A model generated the notes under the pieces. It made no database searches. It was not told the DNA's origin and worked only from the letters and a program-made list of their open reading frames with translations. A program made the translations under genes and the position numbers. 64,000 nt of DNA from Candidatus Spongiisociaceae bacterium (GTDB lineage Bacteria; Actinomycetota; Acidimicrobiia; Spongiisociales; Spongiisociaceae): contig OZ241842.1 in assembly GCA_965202675.1 (NCBI GenBank), forward strand, positions 2,098,918-2,162,917, read 5' to 3'. Positions 1,798-19,870 of this stretch are shown here, one piece after another. The stretch's first letter is position 1, and each line of letters begins with the position of its first letter.

Positions 1798-4446
1798 ATG
1801 GAGGCCGTACCGCCGGGCGGGGGGCTCGACGGCGGCTACGACCACAAGGCGGTCGAGTCCCGCTGGTATCCGATCTGGGAGGAGTCCGGCGCCTTCCGCC
1901 CGGAGATAAACCCCGGCGGCAAGCCCTTCTCCATCGTCATCCCGCCCCCGAACGTAACCGGGGTGCTGCACATCGGCCACGCCCTCGACCACTCCATCCA
2001 GGACGCCATCATCCGGCGCAAGCGCATGCAGGGCCGCGCCGTCCTGTGGCTGCCCGGAACCGACCACGCCGGGATCGCCACCCAGATGGTGGTGGAGCGG
2101 GAGCTGGCCGAGGAGGGGAAAACCCGGTACGAGCTGGGCCGGGAGCGGTTCGTGGAGCAGGTCTGGAGCTGGAAGGCCCGCTCGGGCGGGGCCATCACCC
2201 AGCAGATGCGGGCGCTGGGGGATTCGTGCGACTGGACCAGGGAGCGCTTCACCCTCGACGACCAGCTGTCCGCCGCGGTGCGCGAGGTGTTCGTGAGCCT
2301 GTACGAGAAGGGCCTCATCTACCGGGGCTACCGGATCATCAACTGGTCGCCGGGGTTGATGACCGCCATCTCCGACATCGAGGTGGAGTACGAGGAAGTG
2401 GAAGGCCGGATGGTCCACATCACCTACCCGTTCGCCGAGGGGGGCGCGGACGGGCGGGAGGGGGTGACGGTGGCCACCACCCGCGCCGAGACCATGCTGG
2501 GCGACACCGGGGTGGCGGTCCATCCCGAAGACGAGCGCTACCGCCATCTGGTGGGGCGGACGGTGCGCCTGCCCCTGATGGACCGCCTCATCCCGATCGT
2601 GGCCGACGAGGCGGTCGATCCCTCCTTCGGCACCGGGGCGGTGAAGGTAACGCCCGCCCACGATCCGCTCGACTTCGAGATCGCCGGGCGGGCCGGACTG
2701 CCCCCCGTGCAGGTCATCGGGGAGGACGGGCGCATGACCGCCGCGGCCGGTTCCTTCGCCGGCCTGGACCGCTTCGAAGCCCGCGAGCAGGTGATAGACG
2801 CCCTGCGGAAGCAGGGTTGCCTGGATCGGATCGAGGAGCACCGCCACTCCGTGGGGCACTGCTCTCGGAGCGGGGCGGCGGTGGAGCCGCTGCTGTCCCA
2901 CCAGTGGTTCGTGCGGGTGGCCGACCTGATCGGGCCGGCGGTGGAGGCGGTGCGCAGCGACGCGGCCCGCTTCGTTCCCAAGCGGTGGGAGAAAAATTAC
3001 TTTCATTGGATGGAGAACCTGCATGACTGGTGCGTCAGCCGCCAGCTGTGGTGGGGCCACCGCATCCCGGCCTGGTACTGCGACATCGACGGGGCGGTGA
3101 TGGTGGCCCGGGAGCGGCCGGCGGGGTGCAGCGAGTGCGGTTCGGAGGAGCTGAGGGCCGACGAGGACGTGCTGGACACCTGGTTCAGCTCGGCGCTGTG
3201 GCCCTTCTCGACGCTGGGCTGGCCGGACGACGCCTCCGACCTGCGGCGCTTCTACCCGACCGATGTGCTGGTTACCGGCTACGACATCATCTTCTTCTGG
3301 GTGGCGCGCATGCTGAAGATGGGAATGGAGTTCGCGGGCGAAGCCCCCTTCCGGGAGATAGTCATCCACGGGCTGGTGCGGGCTTCGGACGGGCGGAAGA
3401 TGTCCAAGTCGCTCAACAACATCGTGGACCCCATGGAGATGATCGACCTCTACGGCGCCGACGCCCTGCGCCTGAGCCTGCTCCGGTCGGCGTCGCCCGG
3501 CCACGACGTGCCCTTCGACGTGCAGTGGGTGGACGCCGCCCGGCGGTTCGGCAACAAGCTGTGGAACGCCGTCCGCTTCGCCCTGATGCATCTGGCGCCG
3601 GGGTCGGTTCCGGCGGCGGGCGGCTATCCGGACGATCCGGGGCCGGTGGACCGGTGGATACTGTCCCGCCTGGCGGAGACGGCGGCCCGGGTGGACGAGC
3701 TCTTCGACCGCCACCGGCTGTCCGACGGGTTCTCCCTGCTGTATTCGTTCGCCTGGTCCGAGGTGTTCGACTGGTATCTGGAGATGTCCAAGCCCACCCT
3801 GGCGGCGGGGGGGCCGGAGGCGGAGGCCGCCCGGCGGACGCTGGGGGCGGTGCTGCGGGACCTGCTGGCCTTCTTCCACCCGGCCATGCCGTTCCTGACC
3901 GAGGAGCTGTACAGTCATCTGGTGGGGGAGGGGCTGCTGATCCTGGCGCCGTGGCCCGCGCCGCCCTCCTATGAGGCGCCCGCCGGGATCGGGGCGCTTC
4001 AGGAGCTGGTGGCGGGGGTGCGGGGGTTCCGCGCCGCCCACGGCCTTGCGGCCCGCCGGGGGCTGGAGGCGGTGGTGCATGATCCGGAAGGGTTGTGGGA
4101 AGAGTGGTGGGGGCCGCAGCTGGCCGCCCTGGCAGGCGCGGCGGCGGAGACGGCCGATGCGCCGCCGGAGGCAGGGGAGGGTTACTCGCGGGCGGCGGCC
4201 GGTCCGGTACAGGCTTTCATCCGGCTGGAAGGGGTGATCGACCTAGAGGCGGAGCGGGGGCGGATCCTGGGGCGCATCGACAAAGCCCGCCGCGTCCTGG
4301 AGAAGTCGGAGCGGAAACTGGCCAACCCGGCCTTCCTGGAGCGCGCCCCCGCCGAGGTGGTGTCCAAGGAGGAACAGAAGGCGGCCGAGGCGAGGAAGCT
4401 CCTGGGGGTGCTGGGGGCCCAGCTGGAAGAGCTGGGTTCGGGGTAG
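1798..4446 (+). CDS. valS: Valine--tRNA ligase
   Basis: PPPNVTGVLHIGH (HIGH), GTDHAGIATQ, WCVSRQLWWGHRIP, KMSKS, C-terminal coiled coil LANPAFLERAP; ATG at 1798 has a GGAGG RBS (the ORF track starts at 1777). Confidence 0.97.
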   Translation: MEAVPPGGGLDGGYDHKAVESRWYPIWEESGAFRPEINPGGKPFSIVIPPPNVTGVLHIGHALDHSIQDAIIRRKRMQGRAVLWLPGTDHAGIATQMVVERELAEEGKTRYELGRERFVEQVWSWKARSGGAITQQMRALGDSCDWTRERFTLDDQLSAAVREVFVSLYEKGLIYRGYRIINWSPGLMTAISDIEVEYEEVEGRMVHITYPFAEGGADGREGVTVATTRAETMLGDTGVAVHPEDERYRHLVGRTVRLPLMDRLIPIVADEAVDPSFGTGAVKVTPAHDPLDFEIAGRAGLPPVQVIGEDGRMTAAAGSFAGLDRFEAREQVIDALRKQGCLDRIEEHRHSVGHCSRSGAAVEPLLSHQWFVRVADLIGPAVEAVRSDAARFVPKRWEKNYFHWMENLHDWCVSRQLWWGHRIPAWYCDIDGAVMVARERPAGCSECGSEELRADEDVLDTWFSSALWPFSTLGWPDDASDLRRFYPTDVLVTGYDIIFFWVARMLKMGMEFAGEAPFREIVIHGLVRASDGRKMSKSLNNIVDPMEMIDLYGADALRLSLLRSASPGHDVPFDVQWVDAARRFGNKLWNAVRFALMHLAPGSVPAAGGYPDDPGPVDRWILSRLAETAARVDELFDRHRLSDGFSLLYSFAWSEVFDWYLEMSKPTLAAGGPEAEAARRTLGAVLRDLLAFFHPAMPFLTEELYSHLVGEGLLILAPWPAPPSYEAPAGIGALQELVAGVRGFRAAHGLAARRGLEAVVHDPEGLWEEWWGPQLAALAGAAAETADAPPEAGEGYSRAAAGPVQAFIRLEGVIDLEAERGRILGRIDKARRVLEKSERKLANPAFLERAPAEVVSKEEQKAAEARKLLGVLGAQLEELGSG

Positions 4447-4496
4447 CGGCCCGCGGAGCTGCTTCTCGGTTTCCCCCGGCTTCTCTGTTTCCTCGG

Positions 4497-4841
4497 CTAC
4501 CCGGCGGGTTGGGCGGCGGCCGGGGCGGCGGCGGATTTGATCCAGTCGGCCAGGTGCGCCTCGGGTATCCCGGTCTTGGCGGCCAGCTCGGCGGCGTCGG
4601 CCTCTACCAGCAGGGCGGCCGTTCCCGCCCCGGCGGTTTCGAGGAGCAGGGCGTCGGCGTTGCCGATCCCTTCTATCGAGGTCAGGTCACCCTCGTAGAC
4701 GGCGGCGGAGGCCGGTTCGGGCGCCGGACGGGGGGCTTCCGGCTCCCGGTTCATGGTGACCGCCACCACCCGGTTGCGGAACAGCCATCCCACCGCCCCG
4801 ATCCCCCCCAGGAAAGCGAATATCTTCAGCAGCCGCTTCAT
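4497..4841 (-). CDS. Small membrane-anchored protein with helix-hairpin-helix domain
   Basis: N-terminal hydrophobic segment, Pro/Ala linker, DLTSIEGIG HhH motif followed by LVEADAAELAAKTGI...WI. Confidence 0.7.
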   Translation of the reverse strand: MKRLLKIFAFLGGIGAVGWLFRNRVVAVTMNREPEAPRPAPEPASAAVYEGDLTSIEGIGNADALLLETAGAGTAALLVEADAAELAAKTGIPEAHLADWIKSAAAPAAAQPAG

Positions 4842-4986
4842 TGCCCTACCTCGTTCCTCCTGTCCCGCTGTTGGTCTGTCTCGTCCGGCCGGCCCCGAAC
4901 TCTACCGGCGCCGCGCCGCGTCCCGAATGCTACCCGCCGCAGGCCGGTATCCTCGCCGGCAGTTCACGGCGCCGGGAGGCAAGAAG

Positions 4987-6006
4987 ATGAAGTTCGATCA
5001 TCATCTGCCCGCCGCCCCCCTCGGAGAGGTGCCGGGCCGGGCGGAATGGGCGCAGCGGATCGGCTGCGACGGGGTTTTCAGCGCCGACACCGCCCGCGAG
5101 CCCTTCCTGCCCGTCGCCCTGGCCGCCTCCGCCGCCCCCGGCCTGGACTTCGGGACGGCCATAGCGGCGGCGTTCGCCCGGTCCCCGATGGTGGCGGCGC
5201 AGACCGCCTGGGCGCTGGCCGAGCTCACCGGGGGCCGCTTCCTGCTGGGGCTCGGCTCGCAGATAAAAGCCCACGTCGAGCGGCGTTTCGCCATGCCCTG
5301 GGGTGCGCCCGCCGACCGTCTGGCCGAGTACATCGGGGCGCTGCGGGCTATATGGGAGGCGTGGCAGACCGGCGGGCGGCTGCGTTTCCGGGGTGGCTTC
5401 TATTCCCACACGCTGATGACCCCCTTCTTCGACCCCGGTCCGATCGAGCACCCGGACATACCGATCTACATAGCCGGAGTCGGGCCGCGCATGTCCCGCC
5501 TGGCGGGCGAGATGTGCGACGGCTTCCACGTCCATCCTTTCCACACCGTCCGCTTCCTGCGGGAAGCAACCCTGCCCGCCATGGCCGAGGGCGCCGCCCG
5601 CGCCGGGCGTCCGCTCGACCGGATCGAGCTGGCGTCGACGGTGTTCGTGATCACCGGCCGCGACGAGGCGGAGCTGACGGACATGCGGCGGCGGGTAAGG
5701 CAACAGATCGCCTTCTACGCCTCCACCCCCGCCTACCGGAGGGTGCTGGAAGTCCACGGCTGGGAGTTCGGCCCCCGGCTCACCGCCCTCTCCAAGCGGG
5801 GCGAATGGACAGAGATGGGCAAGGCCGTCCCCGACGAGGCAGTAGCCGAGATAGCCGTAGAAGCCCCCCTCGACCGGCTCGGCGAAGCAGTACGCGACCG
5901 ATACGCCGGCCTCCTGGACCGAATCGGTTTCTACGGCCTGGGGCCAGGAACCCCCGATATGACCGACGCCGAGTGGACAACCCTGGTCAAGGCAGTCCGA
6001 GGCTGA
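4987..6006 (+). CDS. F420-dependent LLM class oxidoreductase (TIGR03617-like)
   Basis: DFGTAIAAAFARSP, GRFLLGLGSQIKAHVERRF, FYASTPAYRRVLEVHGW; start set at ATG AAG TTC (4987). Confidence 0.88.
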   Translation: MKFDHHLPAAPLGEVPGRAEWAQRIGCDGVFSADTAREPFLPVALAASAAPGLDFGTAIAAAFARSPMVAAQTAWALAELTGGRFLLGLGSQIKAHVERRFAMPWGAPADRLAEYIGALRAIWEAWQTGGRLRFRGGFYSHTLMTPFFDPGPIEHPDIPIYIAGVGPRMSRLAGEMCDGFHVHPFHTVRFLREATLPAMAEGAARAGRPLDRIELASTVFVITGRDEAELTDMRRRVRQQIAFYASTPAYRRVLEVHGWEFGPRLTALSKRGEWTEMGKAVPDEAVAEIAVEAPLDRLGEAVRDRYAGLLDRIGFYGLGPGTPDMTDAEWTTLVKAVRG

Positions 6007-6365: not shown

Positions 6366-6433
6366 CGGGAAAAGGGTTTGGGCTTACGCGGTGGTTTGTG
6401 TCTTTCTCCGTAAATACGACCGGCGGTAGGAAG

Positions 6434-6612
6434 TCAGGCCCTCGGCCTGTTTGATGACCGTATCGGTTGCCTTCTCCTGCTTGTCGGGCAGGTACCCGTG
6501 CTCCGCGGAAGCCTCTTGACCGCGATGCGCCGCCGGGCGCGCACATCTTCGCGCCGGGTCCAGTCGATGCCGGTGTTGTAGCGCACCGTCTCCACCAGCT
6601 CGCGGCGATCAT
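6434..6612 (-). pseudogene. hsdR: 3' remnant of a second type I restriction subunit gene
   Basis: Diverged copy of the last ~180 bp of hsdR (about 8840-9020): [24 protein letters not shown], with frameshifts. Confidence 0.85.
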
Positions 6613-6722
6613 GATCAGTCATCCCGCAGGTTTTCCCAATTGCTCTCATAATCAGGCACCTCGGTTCTACTCATGATGGATAATACCTCTAGCCAGCTGC
6701 CAATCAAGAGACGCATTCTATA

Positions 6723-6801
6723 CATGCTTGTACTCGGCGGCGTCCATGGTCCTCCGCAGGCTGTCCGCCATCTTCCAAAGCTCAATCTCATACCCCGTGA
6801 T
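6723..6801 (-). pseudogene. hsdM: 5' remnant of a second type I methyltransferase gene
   Basis: Near-identical to about 17004-17082 ([16 protein letters not shown]...DAAEYKH); same position directly after a DUF4276-like gene. Confidence 0.85.
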
Positions 6802-7409
6802 TAGCTTTCATTGTTTGACCTAGTCTGTTGATCTAACTGCTCAAGAAATCGTTTGGCGTATGGAGATGCCTGCTTGATCTTATCCGGGTTGAGAGTTGCT
6901 AGAATATTAAAGCTGTGTGAGCCTTTGCTGTAAGAGCCCTTCTTGGTATTACGAGTTGCTTGACGGAGTTTATCCAGGACATCATCTTTAGGCACTATCT
7001 CGACATTATTGTATTGCGGTATTGCATCTGCCCGAAAACCTTGACCGTAGTATTCCTGCAATGCTTCTTTGTCGGCTAGAAACCATGATTCCATTATCAG
7101 CACCATCATATGGCATTGTTCCTCGGTGGCATTGCTGGGCTTTGACCATCCATCCCGCTTGTTCAAATGTTGCCAAGGTTTATCTCCTGCTTTGATCGAA
7201 TCTTCGGCATCCACAAGCAAAATACAAAGTTTGTTATCCTCATGAGCAGTTTTGAATTTGTCATAAGCATTATCACGGCTGCCGCAAGCCATTATTCTTG
7301 GCATTCTCTCTTCAAATCCTGCCCTTTTTATGAACTCTGTAAAACCCTTACGGCATTTTGGTTTGAGTGAACCTTCGCCGCCTCCTTCCACATATATTGT
7401 GATGCTCAC
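6801..7409 (-). CDS. DUF4276-like TOPRIM-fold protein (copy 1)
   Basis: ITIYVEGGG N-terminal acidic strand, ACGSRDNAY, LLVDAE, MESWFLADKEAL, YSKGSHSF; GTGA overlap with the upstream ATPase; AT-rich. Confidence 0.8.
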   Translation of the reverse strand: MSITIYVEGGGEGSLKPKCRKGFTEFIKRAGFEERMPRIMACGSRDNAYDKFKTAHEDNKLCILLVDAEDSIKAGDKPWQHLNKRDGWSKPSNATEEQCHMMVLIMESWFLADKEALQEYYGQGFRADAIPQYNNVEIVPKDDVLDKLRQATRNTKKGSYSKGSHSFNILATLNPDKIKQASPYAKRFLEQLDQQTRSNNES

Positions 7410-8698
7410 CAGCGATTCCCTCCCAACTCACCAGTTGTCCAGAGATCACCTAGGCGATATTCTTTAAGCCAAGGCTCAAGTTCCTTTTTGTTGAGCCTAC
7501 GAAGTTGTGTACCAGTTTCAGGTTTTTCACAAACTATAATTGATTCTGGGATATCGGTTAGAGAATCCACAAGTATTTCAGAATGAGTTGTAACTATTAT
7601 CTGACTATGCTCGGATGCTTCTATAAGTAGATCTGCCATCTCACAAATTATATCTGGGTGCAATCCGGTTTCGGGTTCCTCTAAGCAAATAATTGATGAA
7701 GGCTCAGGATTACATAACACCGTTAGTAGACATAGATAACGTAAAGTTCCATCAGATAGCCTGTTAGATGATATCGGATGATCTAATCCTTCTTCATGAA
7801 ATTGTAATTGGACGGTACCATCTCTCAGTCTAGAGACAATATCCAGGACATGTGGATAAAAGGATCGTATGTGGGTCATGATCTTTTGCTTTATCAGGGG
7901 TCGGGTAAATAGATCGTTCAAAACCAGGCCAAGGTTAGAAGCATCTTCTAGTAGGAAATTTTGTGTTTGGTCTGTTGATTGTGGGGAGCGTATTGGACCG
8001 CCTCTAGATAAATCCCATTCCCGATAAAATCTGATTCCTTTAAATCTATCTCCCAGATATGTTAATTCTGGATATGCATCTGGATTACGGAGTTGCTCTA
8101 AAATAGATTGCTCAGGAATAACCTCTATTCTTTGTAGACCTCTTTGAGGTGGCGACTGTAGGAATCGTTGAGTATCCTGGGTTAGAAAAGTTAGAGAAGG
8201 ATCCTGGGTTAGAGGGGGAGCTTGATCTCTTATCTCTTCCATAGGTACATCAAGTACAGGTTGACCATTCTGAAAGCTGTAATATGGATAAGGCTCAGTA
8301 TATCCTGTGAAGGGCACTGCTGTTTCTATTGCTTCATCTACAAGTGTAAATCTTTGTTCATATTCTTGAAATGTTAGCCGGTACCTGATGTCCAGTCTTC
8401 CTAGTTGTGGGTGTTTGGTAGTAACTTCTATGGTAGCTGGAGAGGTTGACTCGACTCCTTTCCAAAGCCATTCTCGTGTCCCGCCGCCTAAGCGTATAGG
8501 CTCGAGTATATCTCTAGGCGTAGCGGCAAGAAGAGACAAAGCCTCAATAAGGTTTGACTTACCGGAGGCATTTGGTCCTATTAGGACATTAAGAGGTTGC
8601 AGTTCGAATTCAGGAGTTTCAGGACCGTAGGAAAGGATATTATTCAGGCGGACTGTTCGGATGAAGTGTTTCTTCATCCATTTCTGCTCCTGTCCCAT
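7406..8698 (-). CDS. ABC-type (AAA_21-like) ATPase (copy 1)
   Basis: Walker A GPNASGKSN, signature LSDGTLRYLCLL, Walker B CLEEPETGLHP, H-loop IVTTHS; true start may be 8677. Confidence 0.9.
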   Translation of the reverse strand: MGQEQKWMKKHFIRTVRLNNILSYGPETPEFELQPLNVLIGPNASGKSNLIEALSLLAATPRDILEPIRLGGGTREWLWKGVESTSPATIEVTTKHPQLGRLDIRYRLTFQEYEQRFTLVDEAIETAVPFTGYTEPYPYYSFQNGQPVLDVPMEEIRDQAPPLTQDPSLTFLTQDTQRFLQSPPQRGLQRIEVIPEQSILEQLRNPDAYPELTYLGDRFKGIRFYREWDLSRGGPIRSPQSTDQTQNFLLEDASNLGLVLNDLFTRPLIKQKIMTHIRSFYPHVLDIVSRLRDGTVQLQFHEEGLDHPISSNRLSDGTLRYLCLLTVLCNPEPSSIICLEEPETGLHPDIICEMADLLIEASEHSQIIVTTHSEILVDSLTDIPESIIVCEKPETGTQLRRLNKKELEPWLKEYRLGDLWTTGELGGNRW

Positions 8699-8818
8699 GA
8701 CATCCCCGTTTGTTTTGGGAAGCTTCGACTCGGTCTTTACCGAAGTATTGGCCCTATGCTACCAGAACGAGACGGGGCAGGCACCGGGGATGTTCGATAC
8801 CGGACGGGGCGGCCGGGG

Positions 8819-11800
8819 TCAGGCCAGCCAGACGGAGGTCAGGGCCTCGGCCTGTTCGATGACCGTGGGGGCGGCTTTCTCCCGTTTGTCGGGCGGGTAC
8901 CCGTGCTTGCGCAGGAGCCGTTTGACCGCGATGCGCAGCCGGGCGCGCACGTCTTCGCGCCGGGTCCAGTCGATGCCGGTGTTGGAGCGCACCGTTTCCA
9001 CCAGCTCGCGGGCGATCATGCTCAGCACCTCGTCGCCCATCACCGCCACCGCGCTGTCGTTGGTCTCCAGGGCGTCGTAGAAGGCCAGCTCCTCCTCGGT
9101 GAGGCCGAGCTCCTCCCCCCGCGCGTCGGCCGCCCGCATATCCCGGGCCAGGCCGATCAGCTCCTCGATCACCTGCGCCGCTTCCACGGCCCGGCTCCGG
9201 TAGCGGCGCAGGGCCTGTTCCAGCAGGTCGGAGAAGAGCTCCCCCTGCACCACGTTGCGCCGCCTGCGCCGCTTCACCTCCCCCCGGAGCAGCCTCTGCA
9301 GCAGCTCGACGGCCAGGTTGCGGCGGGGCATCCCCTTCACCTCGGCCAGGAACTCGTCGGAGAGGACGGAGATGTCGGGCCGGTCCAGCCCGGCGGCGGC
9401 GAACACATCCATCACCCCCTCGGCGACCACCGCCCGGGAGAGGATCTGGCGCACCGCGTGGTCCAACGCCTCCTCGGGCGCCACGCCGCCCGGCGTCCGC
9501 TTGACCAGGGCCGCCCGCACCGCCTGGAAGAAGGCCACATCCTCGCGTATCTCCTCGGTGATGCGGTGGGGGACCGCCAGGGCGAACGCCTGCGACAGCT
9601 GCCGCACCGCCTGCAGACAGCGGTCCTTGCCGTCCTGCAGGGCCAGGACGTGCTCCAGGGCGGCGGGCAGCAGCTCCAGCCGCTCCGCCCCGCCCCCGTC
9701 CGCCCACGCCGATCGGTCGAACCCGTGGAACATCCCCAGGCAGACCTCGTACTTCTCCTGCAGCGCCGCCGCCGCCTGCTCCTGGTCCAGCACCGCCTCG
9801 CCCCGCCCGCCTCCGTCCGCGTACACGGCCAGGGCCCGCTTCAGCTCGTGGGCCACCCCCAGGTAGTCCACCACCCGCCCGCCCGGCTTGTCCCTGAACA
9901 CCCGGTTGACCCTGGTGATGGCCTGCATCAGCCCGTGCCCCCGCATCGGCTTGTCCAGGTACATGGTGTGCAGGCTGGGGGCGTCGAACCCGGTCAGCCA
10001 CATGTCCCGCACCAGCACCATCCTGAGCGGGTCGCCCGGGTCGCGGAACCGGTCGCCCAGGGCCTTGCGGCGGCCCTTGGTGCGGATGTGGCGCTGCCAG
10101 TCGGGCGGGTCGGAAGCCGATCCGGTCATGACGATCTTGATCTCGCCCCCGCCGTCGTCCGGATGCTCCCAGCCGGGCCGCAGGCGCACCAGCTCCCGGT
10201 ACATATCCACACAGATGCGCCGGCTCATGCACACCACCAGCGCCTTGCCGTCCATGGCCTCCAGCCGCTCCTCGAAGTGGGCCACGATGTCCTCGGCCAC
10301 CTCCCGCAGGCGGTCCCCGGCGCCGACCAGGGCCTCCACCTGCGCCCATTTGCGCCCGAGGTCGTCCCGGCGCGACGACTCCTCCCCCTCGGTCACCTGC
10401 TCGAAGTCCTCGTCTATCTCCGCCCGCCGCCCTTCGTCGAGTGACAGCCCGACCAGGCGGCTCTCGTAGAAGACGGGGACGGTGGCCTTGTCCTCCACCG
10501 AGCGTTTGATGTCGTAGACGCTGATGTACTCGCCGAACACGGCCCTGGTGTTGGCGTCCTGCTGCTCGATCGGGGTGGCGGTGAAGCCAATGAAAGAGGC
10601 GTGCGGCAGGGCGTCGCGCATGTGGCGGGCGAACCCGTCGATGAAGTCGTACTGGCTGCGGTGGGCCTCGTCGGCGATCACCACGATGTTGCGCCGCTCG
10701 GACAGGACGGGGTGGGCGTCCCCCTTCTCCTCCGGGAAGAACTTCTGGATGGTGGTGAACACCACCCCGCCCGACTCCACCGACAGCCGCTTCCGCAGGT
10801 CGGCCCGGCTCTCCGCCTGGGCGGGCGGCTGGCGCAGCATATCCCGGCAGCGGGAGAAGGTGTCGAACAGCTGGTCGTCGAGGTCGTTGCGGTCGGTGAG
10901 CACGACGACGGTCGGGTTCTTCATGGCCGGCTCGCGGATGATCCGCCCGGCGTAGAACACCATGGTCAGGCTCTTGCCCGCCCCCTGGGTGTGCCAGACC
11001 ACCCCGATCCGCCGGTCGCCCGGCTTCCCGCCCCGCCCGGCCTCCCCGCCGGCGTCGGCGGGCGGCTGCGCACCGACCGCCCGCAGGGTCTCTCGGACGG
11101 CGGCCTGCACCGCGTGGAACTGGTGGTATCCGGACACCTTCTTGGCGGGGCGCTCCCCCTCGTAGCCCTCGAAGACGATGAAGTCCCGCATCAACGACAG
11201 GAAGCGCCGCGGCTCCAGCACCCCTTCGAAGAGCGCCCGCATCTCGTACCGGACCTCTCCGCCCTCCTCCTCGGCGGGGGTGCGCCACGGCTTGAACCAT
11301 TCCCGCCCGGCGGTGAGCGTTCCCACCCGCGCCTCGAGCCCGTCGGAAACGATCATCAGCCCGTTCATCGAGAACAGGTCCGTAAGCTCCGACTTGTAGG
11401 TCTGCAGCTGCTGCCAGGCGGTCCAGATGGTGGCGTCCTCGTCCAGCGGGTTCTTGAACTCGACCACCGCCAGCGGGAGGCCGTTGACGAACAGAACGAA
11501 GTCCGGCCGCCGCTCATGGTCGCCCTCCCTGACGATGAACTCGTCGAGGGCCAGCCAGTCGTTGTTGCCGGGCTCCTCGAAGTCGATCACCCGGGCCTGC
11601 ACCCCCTTGATGCGGTTGTTCCTGGTGCGGTACTCCACCGGCACCCCGTCCACCAGCATCCGGTGGAAGTTGCGGTTGCGGATCTCCGTCAGCGCCCCCT
11701 CGGGCCGGGTCAACCGGCGGAGGGCGTCCTCCCGCGCATAGGCGGGCAGGCCCGGGTTGAGCCGCTCGACGACCGCCCGCAGCCGCCCCTCCAGCACCAC

Positions 11801-11935
11801 CCTGCTGTAATCCGCCCGCTCCGAGTAGAGGCTGCCCGGTCCGTACAGGCCGCCCCCGGTCCGCCACCCCAGTTCCTCCAACACCTCGAGGGCGTGCGCT
11901 TGGACAACCGATTCGTCTATTCCCGATGCGGACAT
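8819..11935 (-). CDS. hsdR: Type I restriction endonuclease subunit R
   Basis: [20 protein letters not shown] nuclease motif, [39 protein letters not shown]3387-like C-terminus. Confidence 0.96.
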
Positions 11936-11979
11936 ACGGTCAAGCAGGCTATCAGTCCCCCGGACGGCCGAGGCTGCGC

Positions 11980-12762
11980 CTATCCGGCCGTGAGCGCCCG
12001 CTCGAGCTCATCGGGCCGGGACCACATCACAGGGAGGGAAGCGCCCCGCAGCATCGCGATGTCCTCCCCCCGCCATACGTCCACGGTGTCGTCGAACAGC
12101 GAGATGATCGGCTTCTGCCAAGCCTCGCCGGACTGGTCCAACAGATCGCAACAAGCCGAGTAGACGTGTTTGCTGGCGAGCCCGGCGGCGGCGCGCGAAC
12201 GGCTGCTCAGGACGAACACCAGCGAGGTGCGTTCGTCTGCGGTTACTCGGTAGTCCACCGTCCAGTCGCGGCCGGACCTTCCGGCGTGGATCGCGCCCTT
12301 GTCGAAGGTGAAGCGATGCCCGCCGAGCCAGTCCTCCAACTCGTCGGCCACCCCTCCCACCGGCCGCACGCGCAGCGTGAACCATATGTCGGCCACGCGC
12401 GCCGCCGCCTGCGCCACCCGATGGACGGCATCAGCCAGCTGCTTGCCGTCCTTGTAGGCGAGCGTTATCGCGCCGTTCTCCATTTCCACCCCAAGGGTCT
12501 GGCAGATGTTGTCGACCATCCACTGCCTGGTGGGGGAGAGGCGGGCCTCTGTGTTTTGCATTCCCAGCCACCCCAAAGCATCACCGAAGTCGGTTATAAC
12601 CCGCCGATCATCGTTGTGATGCACGAAAACTTCGATTATGCCACCGTCCGGATACAGCAGGGGCGTTGCCACCCTCACCACGCCCGGCTTGGGCATGGGA
12701 GAGCACTCGAACATACTGGGCAGACCGCCGCGCAATAATTCACTGATCTGGTCTGTGGTCAT
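11980..12762 (-). CDS. DUF1828-domain protein, R-M accessory gene
   Basis: [15 protein letters not shown]...ITDFGDAL N-terminal motif; C-terminal DWTVDYRV...IISLFDD region; start set at ATG 12762, overlapping the end of hsdS. Confidence 0.7.
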
Positions 12763-14071
12763 CACTTTTCCAATCTGAATCAATCCTAATCTTACCCGAC
12801 AACAGCTTGGGCAGTAGCGCATCGCGCAGTTCTGCTAGTGTGGATGTTTCTCGTCGGTTGGCGAGTATACGATCAAATAAAACCGAAGTATGTTCCCGAA
12901 ATATCTGTAGGATTGAACCTGTAGGTATGATAGTATCAATAGACATGGCATAGTTCACTTGAGCTCGTTGATGGCTTTTAGAAGTTCCTGTAACTAACGA
13001 CTGTAGCTGTTGCCTAAATATGGTAGAGCGTGCCAAACAATAAATATAGGCTGTGGAGAAACATAGTTTGGGTTTCAGAACCAGAAATTCTGTGGAACAC
13101 ACTGCCCTATCACCTCGTTTTAAATCAACCAACCAAACTCTATCAATTGCGGGATTAAGCCTCGATAATAATACTACGCCAGGTGATAGGATTGTCTTAA
13201 TACTTTTTATGTCTTTACCTGGCTCAAGACGAGGCTTGCAATCTTTGTCATAGGCAGGAATGCTAAAATGTTGAAATAAGGTATCTGGAGATAGTATAGG
13301 ATTTTCCTTGTCCGTTAAATTATACGCAATATGGCTTAGCGTCTTTGTTGACCATCCTTCTGGTATCTCGCCTAGCCTGGAAGGTACGAAACGGTCAGGA
13401 AATAGGTCGTATAGTTCAGCAGGCAGTCCAGGGAGTGAATGGCCTGGTTGCCAGCGACCATCCATCTTGGCCCGAACCGGATCAAAATCAATAAACCACG
13501 ACTCGAACAAAGTCCGCGCCATTTCCTCCAGCGTCTCGTTCATCCGCCGATTCAATTCAATCTTGTCATCCAAAGAGCGGAGAATATGTGCTATAGCTCG
13601 TTGTTCTTTAAGCGGAGGAAGAAGGATTTTTAACTTCGCAAGGTCTTTTGGACGGATGGACGGATAGGCAGATGTATTATTTTCGGCAAGAGTTTGAAGA
13701 TATTCAATTATTATATCTTGAGTTAAAAAATAGTAAATATAATCAGTATAAGCTAATTTACCTATCCCCCGTATTGTAGCAAAGCCAGTAGAAACTAAAA
13801 CATTACCTGGTAACGTTTTAAGAATACCAAAATGTCGCATATTCGGTCGAACTGTTGAATAAACAATATCGCCTTGACAAACCTTTCTACGAGCTCTGTT
13901 AGGGAGCATATTCGGATTTGAAAATAATTGATATCTAGAAATATGATTGTCGGTTATGCTACCAGTATCAAGATAATTGATATACGGCCAGTTCTCGTTT
14001 AATGAATACAGATCAGCGTTTATAATAGCGCAATTTTCAAGAGTAACATACTGCCATTGATTAGACTTCAT
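12740..14071 (-). CDS. hsdS: Type I restriction specificity subunit
   Basis: Two AT-rich variable regions (TRDs) separated by conserved LPPLKEQRAIAHILRSLDDKIELNRRMNETLE...GEIPEGW; C-terminal LAELRDALLPKLLSG. Confidence 0.95.
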   Translation of the reverse strand: MKSNQWQYVTLENCAIINADLYSLNENWPYINYLDTGSITDNHISRYQLFSNPNMLPNRARRKVCQGDIVYSTVRPNMRHFGILKTLPGNVLVSTGFATIRGIGKLAYTDYIYYFLTQDIIIEYLQTLAENNTSAYPSIRPKDLAKLKILLPPLKEQRAIAHILRSLDDKIELNRRMNETLEEMARTLFESWFIDFDPVRAKMDGRWQPGHSLPGLPAELYDLFPDRFVPSRLGEIPEGWSTKTLSHIAYNLTDKENPILSPDTLFQHFSIPAYDKDCKPRLEPGKDIKSIKTILSPGVVLLSRLNPAIDRVWLVDLKRGDRAVCSTEFLVLKPKLCFSTAYIYCLARSTIFRQQLQSLVTGTSKSHQRAQVNYAMSIDTIIPTGSILQIFREHTSVLFDRILANRRETSTLAELRDALLPKLLSGKIRIDSDWKSDDHRPDQ

Positions 14072-14276
14072 CGCCGCACCGCCTTGTTGTTGGATTCTAG
14101 ATGTTTATCTATATCCTTGATAAAATCTCGAAGCATATCAATTTTATCTAATTTAGTCCTCTTTATTAGATCCTTTCTTATAACTAAGAATAATTCACCC
14201 AAAAGAAAAACCCCTTCGTGGTCTGGGTTGTTCTGGCCCTGCTCAGCATTTTCTCTAGTATAAAAGTGTTGCATTA

Positions 14277-15237
14277 GAGCATTAGCGGATAGGGGCTGGT
14301 TTGGGGTTCCATCGGTTTCTCCAGTTGATGAGTTTGATGATGATGATCAGAGCGATGGCGAGCCGGAGCTGGGCTTGGCGGTGCTGGGGGCGGCGGTCGG
14401 TGTTGCGTCGGAGTTGCCCGTAGTTCGAGAGCCACGAGTTGGTCCGTTCGACGGTCCAGCGCATCCCGAGCGGTGCGGGCAGTTTCTTGGGCCGGGCTGC
14501 ACCGGGGGGGCGTTTCCGGGCGCATACTATGTCGGTGATTCCGTAGCTGCGGCAGAGGCCGCGGGTTTTGGGGCTGTCGTAGCCCCGGTCGAGGTGGAGG
14601 GTCTCAATGTCGGGGATCAGCCCCCGATCCCGGATGGCTTGGAGGGTGGGGGCCAACAGCACGGTGTCGTGGCGGTTGGCGGCTCCGGCGGCGGAAGCGA
14701 CGGGGATGCCGTTGCGGTCGACGGCCAGGGACCATTTCCAGCCGGATTTGGCCCGGTCGGTGGGGTTTTTCCCGGTTCCGGGACCTCCGCAGGGCGCTTT
14801 GTGGGCGCTGCCGTCGATGGATACTTCGGTTAGGTCGAGTCCGATCATCCGGTCGTAGGCCCGAAGGGCTTCGGCTTCGAGCTGTTTGAACACACCGGCT
14901 TTGATCCATTCATCGCGGCGGTTCCGCAGGGTGGTGTCAGAAACGGCGTAGTCCAGCAGACGCTCCACGGCTTGCCAGGAGCATCCGAGGATCAACCGGA
15001 TGAGAATCCCCCAGAAGCAGAGCCGGTCGGGAACCCGCGGGCGGTGGCAGCCGAGGGGGTGGTTGTCCACTGGCTGGGGGATCAGGTGTTTGACCGCCTC
15101 CCAGACCGCGTTTACGACTTCGGGTTCGAGCGCGCGCATAATATGCCTCCACCGGTTAGGGGATGTGTTCCGCTCGGGGATCCAACCCGAGAAAACACCC
15201 CAACCGGTGGATTTCCCTCACCTATCCGCTAATGCTC
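14277..15237 (-). mobile_element. IS5-family insertion sequence (961 bp)
   Basis: Perfect 17-bp terminal inverted repeats GAGCATTAGCGGATAGG (14277-14293 / 15221-15237); TTA target duplication (14274-14276, 15238-15240). Confidence 0.95.
14282..15139 (-). CDS. IS5-family transposase
   Basis: SIDGSAHKAP, LAVDRNGIP, LHLDRGYDS and RWTVERTNSWL DDE-region motifs; single ORF. Confidence 0.93.
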   Translation of the reverse strand: MRALEPEVVNAVWEAVKHLIPQPVDNHPLGCHRPRVPDRLCFWGILIRLILGCSWQAVERLLDYAVSDTTLRNRRDEWIKAGVFKQLEAEALRAYDRMIGLDLTEVSIDGSAHKAPCGGPGTGKNPTDRAKSGWKWSLAVDRNGIPVASAAGAANRHDTVLLAPTLQAIRDRGLIPDIETLHLDRGYDSPKTRGLCRSYGITDIVCARKRPPGAARPKKLPAPLGMRWTVERTNSWLSNYGQLRRNTDRRPQHRQAQLRLAIALIIIIKLINWRNRWNPKPAPIR

Positions 15238-15546
15238 TTAGTTTGTTCAAAGCTCGCACAACATCATCAGAACCCATAAGTTTCAGTTCAAACGTATTCC
15301 TACGATACTCATAGGACAGAATCTGCTTTAGGTCTTCCTCGGTAAGGTCCTCTTTGTTTACAACCGAATTAAGTAGTCGAATATATGGCTCAAGAGCCTG
15401 CATATATATTTTCCTGCGCTCATCTTGCAGGCGTTCCTGCTCTCTCCTTACAGAATCAAAGTATTGACGAAGGAACCAACCGGTAGGTCCAACTATCAAA
15501 GCGACTACAATCGGAGCTGTAATGTTCATTGCCCAGTCCATGATTA

Positions 15547-17135
<1,589 letters not shown>

Positions 17136-17139
<4 letters not shown>

Positions 17140-17735
17140 GATTGCTCCAGCAGAGCTTTGAAGAAGCGATCGGCATAAGGAGAAGCCCGACGAACCTTTT
17201 CAGGGTCCAATCTGGCTAAGATCTCAAAACCGTGCTTGCCTTTATTGCGTTCGTATACACCCTTTTGCGTTTTGCGTGTAGCTTGATTGAGTCCAGAAAT
17301 AACTGTTTGTTTAGGGATGTTTTCAATATTTGGATCTTTTGGTAGGGCTCCTGCCACAAAATCTTGGCCATAGTATTTCGCAAGCTCCTCTTTATTGGAT
17401 AGAAACCAAGATTCCATAAGTTGCACCATAAGATGATATTGATCATCCGCAGCATCAGCAGGTTTTTTCCAACCCTCCAGCTTTTCTAAGTGTTCCCATG
17501 CGCTATTAGCAGTTACAGGTCCTTCAGCGTCTACAAGAAGCAAAGCCCTTGCTCTGTCGTTGCGCTTATGATGTTTAGTGAACTCTCTATGGGCTCTTGA
17601 GCGGCTCCCACAGGTTGCAACTTTGAAAGATTCGTGATGTGCGCCTGTCTTTTCGATAAAGAGCCCAACAAGTCTACGTATTTCCTTGTCGGATTTTTGT
17701 TTGCTTCCGCCTTCCATATATATCTTATTTACCAT
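17136..17735 (-). CDS. DUF4276-like TOPRIM-fold protein (copy 2)
   Basis: [35 protein letters not shown]; clear paralog of 6801-7409; overlaps the ATPase stop and the hsdM start. Confidence 0.8.
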
Positions 17736-18925
17736 CTTGTCCCACCGATTTGCCCTGCCATCCAAATTTCCCCCAGTCGATAATCTTCAAGCCATGATTC
17801 GATTTCGTCCTTACCGACACGTCGTAATCTAGTAGCACCATTTTGTTTTTCACATATAACGATAGATTCAGGTATATCTGTTAGAGCATCCACCAGAGCA
17901 TCAGAATGGGTTGTCACGATAATCTGACTCCGCTCAGAAGCCTCAATTAAGAGGTCTGCTATTTCTGCTATAATATCAGGGTGCAAACCGACTTCGGGTT
18001 CTTCTATACAGATCACAGGTGGTGGATCTGGATGACACAAAACTGCTAAAAGGCAAAGATAACGCAGGCTACCATCGGACATATTTGTGGCGGAGATCGG
18101 ATGGCGAAGTGGCCCTTCATGGAAGAACATCTGGATACTGTTGCCAATAGACTCAAAAACGATGTCGTTTATGTCAGGATAGAATCTCTTCATCCTGAGC
18201 ATAATATTATTCTTTACGCCGGGGTTTGTTAGCAAGCTGTTCATGACCGAGCTCAGATTGTGACCGAGTTCCGATAAAAAATTTCTTGGCAAATCAAGTC
18301 TTCCTGGCTGACGCGGTGGTTCGGCTTTGGGAAAGTCCCAACTGCGATGAAACTGTATGTGCTCAAAACAGCTTGCCAAATATGTCAGTTCTGGATTGGC
18401 ACCTCGTTGCTGTGCTAAAATGGATAATTCAGTATCTACATCCTCAATTGGAATATCTGATACATAACGCATTTTAGATTCGTTGTCTTGTTTGGATAAA
18501 TACGTTATTTTGGCTTTACCTGCTCGATAACGATAGTAGTGATAAGGCAAACTAGGATCTACCGGTGGTGTAGCCTTTTCAATTACTTCATCTACAAGTA
18601 CGAATCTCCGAGCAGTTTCAGTGAAAGCTAAACGATATCGTATCGGTTCCCATATAGATTCTATAGTAACTTCAACCGAGGATATTCCTAGTTGCTCAGA
18701 ACCTTTCCATATCCATTCGCGTGCGCCGCCGCCTAATAATATCCGATGCTGAATGTTTCTAGGTGCCTCGGCTAAGAGGGCTAGTACTTCAATCAAGTTG
18801 GATTTCCCAGAGGCGTTGGGGCCAATCAAAACATTCAACGGTTCAAGAGCGAATTCGTCATTGCCCGGGCCATATGAAAGAATGTTATCAAGACGGATTG
18901 TATGGATGAATCTGTGGCCATCCAT
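17729..18925 (-). CDS. ABC-type (AAA_21-like) ATPase (copy 2)
   Basis: GPNASGKSN, MSDGSLRYLCLL, CIEEPEVGLHP, IVTTHS, C-terminal [15 protein letters not shown]. Confidence 0.9.
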   Translation of the reverse strand: MDGHRFIHTIRLDNILSYGPGNDEFALEPLNVLIGPNASGKSNLIEVLALLAEAPRNIQHRILLGGGAREWIWKGSEQLGISSVEVTIESIWEPIRYRLAFTETARRFVLVDEVIEKATPPVDPSLPYHYYRYRAGKAKITYLSKQDNESKMRYVSDIPIEDVDTELSILAQQRGANPELTYLASCFEHIQFHRSWDFPKAEPPRQPGRLDLPRNFLSELGHNLSSVMNSLLTNPGVKNNIMLRMKRFYPDINDIVFESIGNSIQMFFHEGPLRHPISATNMSDGSLRYLCLLAVLCHPDPPPVICIEEPEVGLHPDIIAEIADLLIEASERSQIIVTTHSDALVDALTDIPESIVICEKQNGATRLRRVGKDEIESWLEDYRLGEIWMAGQIGGTRW

Positions 18926-18942: not shown

Positions 18943-19209
18943 CTAGTTGTAATCGTCTCTGTGCGGCCGGCCGAGGAGCAAGGCCTGTATGGTGCCGCTC
19001 TCACCCCGCGATGTCGCTTCGTGCCTGCCGTTCCACCAGTCGGTGTTCTTGTCCAGGATGATTTCTATCTGCCTGATGTCGCTCGGCTCCAAGTCGTCGA
19101 TGCCGCCCTCGTACCCTTCGACCACCACGCGCAGGTCGGCCGGGTACCGGGAAAGTATCCGCATCAGGTCTCGGACGGTCGTCGGTTTGACCGTGGTGGT
19201 GCTCGCCAT
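18943..19209 (-). CDS. Small hypothetical protein
   Basis: TVRDLMRILSRYPADLRVVVEGYEGGIDDL; plausible codon usage; no function assignable. Confidence 0.6.
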   Translation of the reverse strand: MASTTTVKPTTVRDLMRILSRYPADLRVVVEGYEGGIDDLEPSDIRQIEIILDKNTDWWNGRHEATSRGESGTIQALLLGRPHRDDYN

Positions 19210-19495
19210 GCGGCCAGTGTAATAGAACCACCCGAGATGTGGCAAGGCTCAGGCGCGACCGTCAGGGCCGCAAGCCGATGTCGATACGGATGGGGTTCAC
19301 CCAGGCGTTGCGGGAGGTGATCCGCATCGGGCGGGCGGGTCGTCAAGGGTGTTCCAGGTTCCTCGGATCAGGGGCACCGGTTCTTCCGGCCAAGAGGAGG
19401 GGGGCCGTTTTGGAGAGTGCCGCGTCGGCCAGCCCGCTGTCGAGGAGAGAGCAGAACAGGCGGGCGCCTCCCTCCGCCAATCAGCCGGTCGACGG

Positions 19496-19870
19496 TCAGT
19501 TGGCCGCAGCCGTTGGTTGTTGAAGAAGAACAGCGGCGGGGATTCCGAGGCGCTCGTGAAGGGCGCGCGCCGTCGACATGTTGAGGGCACGTTTGCCGGA
19601 CAGCACATCCGAAACCTCGGAAGGGCTCCCTATGAGCGGGACGAGGTCTTGTCGGGTCAACCCTGCCTGTTCCATACGAAACTCGATAGCGGCAACCGGG
19701 CTCGGATAACCGATTGGATGGTGCTTGGATTCGTAATGTTCAACGAGGTCAACCAGGATTTCTAGTTCCTCGCTCTCCGGAGTGTTCTCTTCGGCATCAA
19801 AGATTTTGTCGATTCTCGCGAGCGCGCGATCAAGATCCTCATCCGTGCGGATCGGCTTGATGTCGGCCAT
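19496..19870 (-). CDS. higA: HigA-family antitoxin / HTH regulator
   Basis: IKPIRTDEDLDRALARID...LVEHYE...FRMEQAGLTRQDL...VLSGKRALN...LHERLGIPA; GAGGAGG RBS. Confidence 0.88.
   Translation of the reverse strand: MADIKPIRTDEDLDRALARIDKIFDAEENTPESEELEILVDLVEHYESKHHPIGYPSPVAAIEFRMEQAGLTRQDLVPLIGSPSEVSDVLSGKRALNMSTARALHERLGIPAAVLLQQPTAAAN

Follow-up and report, generated by a model that had tools for sequence, protein, structure and literature searches.

What keeps two intact ATPase gene pairs in place at either end of a type I restriction-modification (R-M) operon that is itself breaking down? The question is raised by the 64,000-nucleotide (nt) stretch of DNA analysed here (the window; G000:C1:2098918-2162917), which belongs to the 3.0-Mb single-contig genome, of about 70% GC, of a Candidatus Spongiisociaceae bacterium. 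An island of about 13.7 kb, bounded by a luciferase-like monooxygenase and ValRS at one end and by a gamma-glutamyltranspeptidase at the opposite end, carries an hsd operon with an ABC ATPase gene and a small DUF4276 gene ahead of hsdM (pair 2: ATPase2 and DUF4276_2) and a second such pair after hsdR (pair 1: ATPase1 and DUF4276_1). A preliminary description had read these genes as paralogous, PARIS-like guards dedicated to type I R-M. We find that both pairs are members of HEC-01, an already catalogued combination of an ABC ATPase and a small TOPRIM protein, and we consider it fairly probable that each is a self-contained two-gene module, probably an ATPase-nuclease defence complex, that is selected independently of R-M.

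Both gene pairs belong to HEC-01

HEC-01 (Hma-embedded candidate 01) is described in PADLOC-DB v2 as an ABC ATPase plus a TOPRIM protein, often found within Hma systems (Payne, Hughes, Fineran, Jackson, bioRxiv 10.1101/2024.01.29.577857). The HEC-01A model PDLC04177 covers the full length of both ATPases in the window, and the HEC-01B model PDLC04201 covers the full length of both DUF4276 proteins (Table 1). In each pair the HEC-01B match is adjacent to the HEC-01A match on the same strand and has a predicted TOPRIM fold with an OLD-like metal site. Pfam assigns the ATPases to AAA_21/AAA_15 and the small proteins to DUF4276, the Mad4 family, which the literature places in the TOPRIM superfamily.

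The AlphaFold 2 model of DUF4276_1 (mean predicted score in the local distance difference test, pLDDT, 94.6) finds the C-terminal TOPRIM regions of OLD nucleases as its top matches in the Protein Data Bank (PDB; 6njv, 6nk8 and 6p74). In this Foldseek search 6njv scored E = 1.4e-4, and the Xanthomonas, Burkholderia and Thermus OLD regions were returned with probabilities of 0.98-1.0 and query TM-scores of 0.51, 0.54 and 0.40, respectively. Searched by sequence against the PDB, alone or as a 48-sequence profile, DUF4276_1 has no significant match and does not recover MAD4, so the OLD match comes from the fold search. The TOPRIM-type acidic motifs that had been noticed earlier are borne out, since E8 (YVEGGG), D67/E69 (LLVDAE) and E107 (MESWF) do not vary among 48 homologues and occur in both copies in the window. 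The ATPase1 model (pLDDT 80) has an ABC fold that matches SMC and Rad50 heads, Thermus OLD (6p74, ranked third) and PtuA, and the ATPases carry conserved Walker A (GPNASGKSN), Walker B/D-loop (CLEEPE) and H-loop (THS) motifs.

The evidence does not single out PARIS. Like PARIS (Rousset et al. 2022; Burman et al. Nature 2024 PMC11464382), each pair joins an AAA15/21-type ABC ATPase to a separate TOPRIM-superfamily effector, and AriA is the best sequence match of the ATPase profile among solved structures, at a weak E of 1.4e-6. The effector is different: AriB of PARIS belongs to DUF4435, whereas the window effector belongs to DUF4276 and is nearest in fold to OLD C-terminal regions, and neither Pfam nor PADLOC gives a match to AriB or DUF4435. 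When the subunit models were compared with known structures, AriA and AriB lay outside the top 50 matches of ATPase1 and DUF4276_1, respectively. PADLOC's AriA models do match the window ATPases at 6e-34 and 4e-36, far below HEC-01A at 1e-157. For MADS, the NCBIfam MAD3 model NF047739 reaches 88.8 bits against a cut-off of 420, and neither DUF4276 protein matches MAD4 in PADLOC or NCBIfam. Because the HEC-01 models match over the full length and the PARIS and MADS models fall short, we assign both pairs to HEC-01 and to neither of the other systems.

The pairs are retained beside decayed R-M genes

The layout given in the preliminary description was right: the order ATPase, DUF4276, hsdM occurs twice, every element lies where it had been placed or a few bases away, and the genes are coupled by overlapping codons. 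In pair 2, the true start codon of DUF4276_2, the ATG at 17735, overlaps the ATPase2 stop (ATGGTAA), and the DUF4276_2 stop overlaps the hsdM ATG (ATGA, 17139-17136), with GGAG upstream. In pair 1, the GTG start of DUF4276_1 overlaps the TGA stop of ATPase1 (GTGA), and the ATG of an hsdM stub lies 8 nt before the DUF4276_1 stop, as it does in a related locus, L031. It also holds that both pairs are intact and AT-rich while one R-M system has been deleted to stubs and the other hsdM is frameshifted. Both have a GC content of 0.41-0.46 against about 0.70 in the flanks, and the GC profile of the window falls sharply into AT-rich troughs at 6.5-8.5 kb, 12.5-14.5 kb and 17-19 kb.

Pair 1, at the tail, is the relic of a second operon, of whose R-M genes only hsdM and hsdR stubs are left. 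The hsdM stub, about 85 nt long, shares 89-95% identity with the 5' ends of the other hsdM and of its counterparts in relatives; one extra base and truncation after about 28 codons mark it as a relic. The longer hsdM, downstream of pair 2, appears from the assembly sequence to be a pseudogene with two frameshifts, an A inserted near 16887 and a T lost near 16160, both private to the window in comparison with six relatives. With hsdS and hsdR as intact open reading frames (ORFs) and hsdM frameshifted, the window does not contain a complete intact type I R-M system.

The island recurs, with 88-98% nucleotide identity, in six sibling scaffolds (L089, L091 and L093-L096), where it occupies the same place in the chromosome. 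Pair 1 follows hsdR in the window, L089, L091 and L093, and the hsdM and hsdR stubs are common to the window, L089 and L091 and absent in L093. Between its stubs L089 has a methyltransferase-like ORF of 319 amino acids (aa) with EPFAGS and NPPW motifs (10725-11684), which the window lacks.

We estimated the ratio of nonsynonymous to synonymous substitution (dN/dS) against the sibling strains by the Nei-Gojobori method. The ratio is 0.19-0.31 for ATPase1, 0.15-0.25 for DUF4276_1, 0.09-0.16 for ATPase2 and 0.36-0.38 for DUF4276_2, so that all four pair genes fall within 0.09-0.38 over a dS of 0.1-0.5; HsdR gives 0.17-0.22 and ValRS, the housekeeping comparison, 0.12-0.22. Pair 1, with a dN/dS of 0.15-0.31 like that of ValRS, is under purifying selection in three strains in which its R-M genes are stubs. 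Taken together, the low ratios and the stubs show that pair 1 remained under selection once its own R-M had become stubs, from a time before the divergence of these strains, and the earlier claim that the pairs are retained after R-M loss is thereby upheld.

The hsdM gene beside pair 2 tells of repeated damage. It is frameshifted independently in the window genome and in L093, in the latter by two other private indels, and both pairs are intact in both. Four further relatives (L009, L089, L095 and L096) have an intact hsdM, with HsdM proteins of 515-533 aa. We rejected a reciprocal pattern, in which R-M is broken when the pair is intact and vice versa, because L009, L095 and L096 have both intact. 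In L089, an in-frame deletion of DUF4276_2 (1740-1860) joins its first four codons to codon 10 of hsdM, so that ATPase2 is coupled straight to hsdM.

Linkage to R-M is tight in one lineage and scarce in the family

A scan of 185,579 species genomes gave 400 relatives, of which the best 80 (L009-L088) were examined. Homologues number about 1,660 for DUF4276_1 and more than 7,990 for ATPase1 and occur across many phyla; the best 80 relatives come from Chloroflexota, Acidimicrobiia, Acidobacteriota, Nitrospirota, Gemmatimonadota, Myxococcota, Latescibacterota and others, and by their names many of them may be metagenome-assembled genomes of sponge symbionts. In high-GC Acidimicrobiia hosts the pair has a GC content of 0.40-0.45 against 0.70 in its flanks. 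The ATPase gene lies directly 5' of the DUF4276 gene in all 80 loci.

This family-wide view does not support dedication to type I R-M. Among the 80 closest loci, no more than 7-10 have a type I hsdM like the window's at a distance of up to 10 kb, which leaves about 88-91% without type I R-M in that range. Among the linked loci, L009 and L031 have hsdM directly downstream of the pair, and L038 has it 800 nt downstream; in L012, L015, L016 and L017 the pair is enclosed by hsdM and hsdS, and L020, L027 and L030 are weaker cases. Mapped on the ATPase tree, this linkage requires at least six gains or losses. The nearest relative of pair 1 in the collection, L011, stands alone between ogt/ribD_C and a PGA_cap gene. 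An obligate third partner was also rejected, as all-against-all clustering of the ORFs of the 80 loci found no neighbour in more than 10 of them. Neighbours are mostly housekeeping genes in nearly random orientation (same strand in 45/78 downstream and 43/75 upstream), and a PADLOC tally of the 78 immediate downstream genes counted at most five type I methyltransferases and nothing else enriched. The scarce linkage and the lack of a recurrent neighbour indicate an autonomous two-gene cassette that is sometimes embedded in R-M, which agrees with the picture of HEC-01 drawn by Payne et al. (10.1101/2024.01.29.577857).

Within this Acidimicrobiia lineage, R-M linkage is much tighter than it is family-wide. 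All seven loci of the pair-2 lineage (the window, L009, L089, L093, L094, L095 and L096) lie directly at hsdM, and the 4-nt overlap of the DUF4276 stop with the hsdM start is found in all six that retain DUF4276.

The two pairs come from different sublineages

The pairs are paralogous, as had been described, with 50% identity between the ATPases and 44% between the DUF4276 proteins. In the tree built from 82 ATPases, the sister of pair 2 is L009 (support 100) and that of pair 1 is L011 (support 99). A recent in situ tandem duplication is ruled out by this divergence and by the position of each pair next to a different foreign locus. The 3.0-Mb genome holds five HEC-01 pairs from three or four subfamilies, the other three being at L006 10189-12071, L007 9499-11460 and L008 9543-11344. 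The L007 pair directly follows a 1139-aa SNF2 helicase (DrmD/HmaA-like), three AT-rich ORFs and an 872-aa type IIG/DrmMI-like methyltransferase, and the L006 pair is 2.3 kb from an AT-rich type II R-M (L006 6001-7869).

Variation is focused in two short segments. In ATPase1, an insert that follows FQNGxPVLN (residues ~148-190) differs in length by 0-45 aa among relatives that are otherwise 85-90% identical, and pLDDT drops below 50 in the model at residues 148-179. By secondary-structure order, we infer that this insert would fall between helix 1 and strand 2, a region of such ATPases that has been proposed in the literature to tune trigger specificity. In DUF4276_2, residues ~112-165 (window 17250-17399) have about 50% nucleotide identity to L093, L095 and L096 between flanks of 90-100%, which makes the gene a recombination mosaic. 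The dS of ATPase1 (0.23-0.47) is several-fold above that of the flanking hsdR and ValRS (0.04-0.08) and points to allele exchange.

The hsd operon carries further cargo

Coordinates of the operon and of both pairs are collected in Table 1. The 88-aa ORF that opens the operon has no match in Pfam, PADLOC, NCBIfam or the PDB. It precedes the ATPase gene in all seven pair-2 lineage loci, with a dN/dS of 0.14-0.39 in comparisons among the window, L089, L093-L096 and L009. L038 has a homologue of this ORF after the pair, directly before hsdM. This arrangement suggests that the operon once began with the 88-aa ORF and that the AT-rich pair entered between that ORF and hsdM; judged from gene order, the ORF is probably the leader gene with which this family of type I operons started out.

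Table 1. Features of the island, in minus-strand order from the promoter-like site through the 88-aa ORF to the hsdR remnant; positions are those of the window
Feature	Position	Strand	Evidence and remarks
Promoter-like site, TTGCCA-18-TACACT	19216..19245	-	Candidate operon promoter by consensus match; immediately 5' of 88-aa ORF
88-aa acidic ORF, pI ~5, GC-rich	18943..19209	-	Kept in relatives
ATPase2, HEC-01A, ABC ATPase, 398 aa	17729..18925	-	PDLC04177 E 2.9e-142, full length; Pfam AAA_21 2e-38
DUF4276_2, HEC-01B, TOPRIM-like, 199 aa	17136..17735	-	PDLC04201 1.2e-65; Pfam DUF4276
hsdM (type I methyltransferase), pseudogene as assembled	15547..17139	-	+1 near 16887, -1 near 16160; aligned to intact relatives
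AT-rich 107-aa ORF, N-terminal hydrophobic segment	15218..15541	-	ORF list; last 8 codons inside the insertion sequence
Insertion sequence, 967 bp	14276..15242	-	DDE_Tnp_1/DUF4096 transposase at 14282-15139 (Pfam)
hsdS, 443 aa, intact ORF, AT-rich	12740..14071	-	Pfam Methylase_S; PADLOC Specificity_I 3.8e-87
DUF1828 protein, PADLOC candidate PDC-M24B	11980..12822	-	Pfam DUF1828 9e-13; PDLC04540 2e-68
hsdR, 1038 aa, intact ORF	8819..11935	-	HSDR_N, SWI2_SNF2, T1RH-like_C; PADLOC REase_I E 0
ATPase1, HEC-01A, ABC ATPase, 423-430 aa	7406..8698 (alternative start 8677)	-	PDLC04177 2.6e-157
DUF4276_1, HEC-01B, TOPRIM-like, 202 aa	6801..7409	-	PDLC04201 6.8e-82
hsdM 5' remnant, frameshifted, truncated	6722..6811	-	Directly 3' of DUF4276_1; nt identity to other hsdM
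hsdR 3' remnant	6429..6618	-	85% nt identity to 8834-9025 of full hsdR

The hsd operon is a hotspot for embedded cargo. A 107-aa AT-rich ORF, unmatched in Pfam, PADLOC and NCBIfam, begins 5 nt past the hsdM stop and may be another embedded passenger gene, now disrupted by an insertion sequence (IS). The IS, between hsdM and hsdS, is 99.9% identical to a second copy at genome positions 2311871-2312837 and is missing at this site in the relatives compared (L009, L089, L093, L095 and L096), which together indicate a recent insertion. Its ends are GAGCATTAGCGGATAGG, flanked by TTAG/TAG. The DUF1828 gene between hsdS and hsdR is kept in L009, L089, L091, L093 and L095, with a dN/dS of 0.35-0.49.

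The gene content of the slot between hsdS/DUF1828 and hsdR varies among siblings: L091 has three extra ORFs without Pfam matches (3469-5457), and a DUF6978 gene is present in L095 (5293-5739) and L096 (5375-5821). At the edge of the island, the window has a 124-aa HTH_3 gene (Xre/HigA-like; 19496-19870, minus strand) with no obvious toxin partner, and at the corresponding position L094 has a 149-aa ORF with a faint HTH_3 match.

HEC-01 pairs as probable self-contained modules

In composition, each pair is in effect a split OLD enzyme built from the same two Pfam families as MAD3-MAD4. The window genes share with OLD nucleases (P2 Old and the Burkholderia, Xanthomonas and Thermus OLD proteins; Schiltz et al. 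2019-2020) the logic of an ATPase-coupled TOPRIM nuclease, and the TOPRIM subunit has its best fold matches there. OLD is one polypeptide, whereas the window encodes two overlapping genes; P0192, a rare natural fusion of this ATPase family with DUF4276 in a single 605-aa chain from a metagenome, links the split pair to one-chain OLD. The biochemical precedent is the MAD3-MAD4 complex of Pseudomonas aeruginosa MADS, which has a 2:2 composition, gains ATPase activity by assembling, and nicks and cleaves plasmids in a Mg-dependent way (Maestri et al. 10.1101/2023.03.30.534895; Zhang et al. NAR 2026 PMC13662399). It too is a split ABC ATPase and DUF4276 TOPRIM protein beside a type I-like methyltransferase (MTase) and S subunit, with equivalent acidic metal-site residues.

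By analogy with MAD3-MAD4, the ATPase and the TOPRIM subunit would form an ATPase-nuclease complex in which sensing or licensing falls to the ATPase and the cutting of nucleic acid, most probably DNA, to the TOPRIM subunit. Its likely role would be defence against phages or other mobile genetic elements. We picture the pair as a mobile AT-rich cassette that usually stands alone and that, in this lineage, may have been inserted into type I operons between the leader ORF and hsdM, where it would be co-transcribed and translationally coupled with hsdM. The window would then contain one module at the head and another at the tail of a single hsd operon, each from its own sublineage, and both could work, or at least be selected, without functional R-M.

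Several observations weigh against this interpretation. The lone HEC-01 representative that has been tested in Escherichia coli gave no protection against the phages tried (10.1101/2024.01.29.577857). The window proteins are far from MAD3 and MAD4, so that the biochemistry of those proteins carries over by analogy. The clean loss of DUF4276_2 in L089, with ATPase2 kept, shows that the pair is dispensable in at least one strain. Finally, the conserved coupling to hsdM in the pair-2 lineage could reflect functional wiring to R-M instead of autonomy.

Readings that tie the pairs to R-M

The last of these points can be developed into an account specific to this apparently sponge-associated Acidimicrobiia lineage. 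HEC-01 modules would here be wired into type I operons, between the leader ORF and hsdM with a 4-nt overlap, as back-up nucleases that fire when R-M is inhibited or lost; the recombining ATPase insert and the C-terminal subdomain of DUF4276 would set trigger specificity, and two modules of different specificity would for that reason be kept after R-M decay. We regard this as unlikely. That embedded ABC-ATPase systems might serve as back-up against anti-restriction proteins was already raised, as speculation, in the discussion of 10.1101/2024.01.29.577857. The window shares with the published HEC-01 pairs the two-gene architecture, the orientation and the embedding in methylation-based defence. 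It differs in its host, as HEC-01 was defined from Hma and here the host is a type I operon with the pair between leader ORF and hsdM, and in having two diverged modules that bracket a single operon.

A somewhat less likely possibility is that the pair is an integral nuclease arm, as in MADS. HsdM and HsdS would read methylation at the type I site together with the pair, which would supply a second or alternative nuclease beside HsdR, mirroring Mad3-Mad4 with Mad2 (the MTase) and Mad5 (S-like). The Pfam families in common with Mad3/Mad4 and the translational coupling to hsdM fit such a role. HsdM and HsdS of this operon type also match PADLOC mad2 (1e-54, L009 HsdM) and mad5 (4e-27), and the order hsdM, ATPase, DUF4276, ..., hsdS in L012, L015, L016 and L017 resembles mad2-3-4-5. 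The best argument for a methylation read-out comes from MADS genetics: loss of mad5 is possible only when mad2 or mad3 is removed as well, a dependence that connects the ATPase with methylation-dependent self-toxicity. The window nonetheless lacks mad1, mad6, mad7 and mad8, its operon runs hsdM-hsdS-DUF1828-hsdR with a classical HsdR, and the NCBIfam MAD3 cut-off is missed widely. The majority of relatives are solitary, lacking an MTase or S gene in their neighbourhood; purifying selection acts on pair 1, which has no M and S genes of its own; and both pairs are intact beside a frameshifted hsdM, a state that the model would make lethal or useless. The stand-alone majority and the retention of pairs beside a broken hsdM argue against strict dependence on R-M here.

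PrrC is an established guard that is silenced by the R-M enzyme. Together with PARIS and Gabija it provides precedent for the idea behind the preliminary description, in which the ATPase would sense anti-restriction proteins (Ocr, ArdA, Stp-like) or type I inhibition and free the TOPRIM effector to abort infection, possibly by tRNA cutting, with two pairs giving two trigger specificities. In PARIS itself, Ocr is the trigger, tRNA is cleaved and the assembly is AriA6:AriB3 (PMC11464382). We think this doubtful, and slightly more so than a MADS-like arm. The weak AriA match of the ATPase profile and the overlapping-codon pairing with hsdM, conserved in the lineage, do favour a guard. The hypervariable ATPase1 insert and DUF4276_2 segment fit published ideas on trigger specificity, and keeping the pairs after R-M loss is compatible with direct sensing of phage proteins. 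Set against these are the roughly 88-91% of the best 80 loci that have no type I R-M within 10 kb; PrrC, by comparison, is almost always embedded in type I R-M, whereas the HEC-01 family is mostly alone. The effector has an OLD-type fold in place of AriB or DUF4435, and the ATPase fold is no nearer to anything else than to SMC, Rad50, OLD and PtuA, with AriA outside the top 50. In E. coli, the HEC-01 pair that was tested did not defend against BASEL or classic coliphages, and in MAD3-MAD4, the sole case of DUF4276-pair biochemistry, the activity is cleavage of DNA, not tRNA. RloA/RloB and PrrC/RloC resemble the window pairs as ATPase-containing passengers nested in hsd operons and differ in that Pfam gives no match to RloB PF13707 (E <= 0.01) or to an anticodon-nuclease domain.

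That the pairs have no current host function, as selfish or addictive passengers or as remnants not yet decayed in an island being lost, is very improbable: the decay of the island (stubs, two hsdM frameshifts and an IS), the loss of DUF4276_2 in L089, the AT-rich foreign composition and the failure of the tested HEC-01 to defend would all suit it, but constraint is evident in all four genes (dN/dS 0.09-0.38 at a dS of 0.1-0.5), every catalytic motif is kept, homologues of both proteins run to about 1,660 and more than 7,990 across many phyla, and five HEC-01 pairs occupy a 3-Mb genome.

Significance for HEC-01

HEC-01 is among the commonest gene pairs embedded in methylation-based defence systems. 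Our analysis leaves its classification unchanged; what it adds is a natural experiment at the level of strains and two hypervariable segments. In the window and its six siblings, the pairs are intact and under purifying selection while two strains have each lost a working hsdM independently and an entire R-M operon has disappeared, and the TOPRIM-only deletion in L089 and the focusing of variation in two short segments belong to the same small experiment. It argues that the HEC-01 module has a function of its own, and it marks the regions where specificity for a trigger or a partner may lie.

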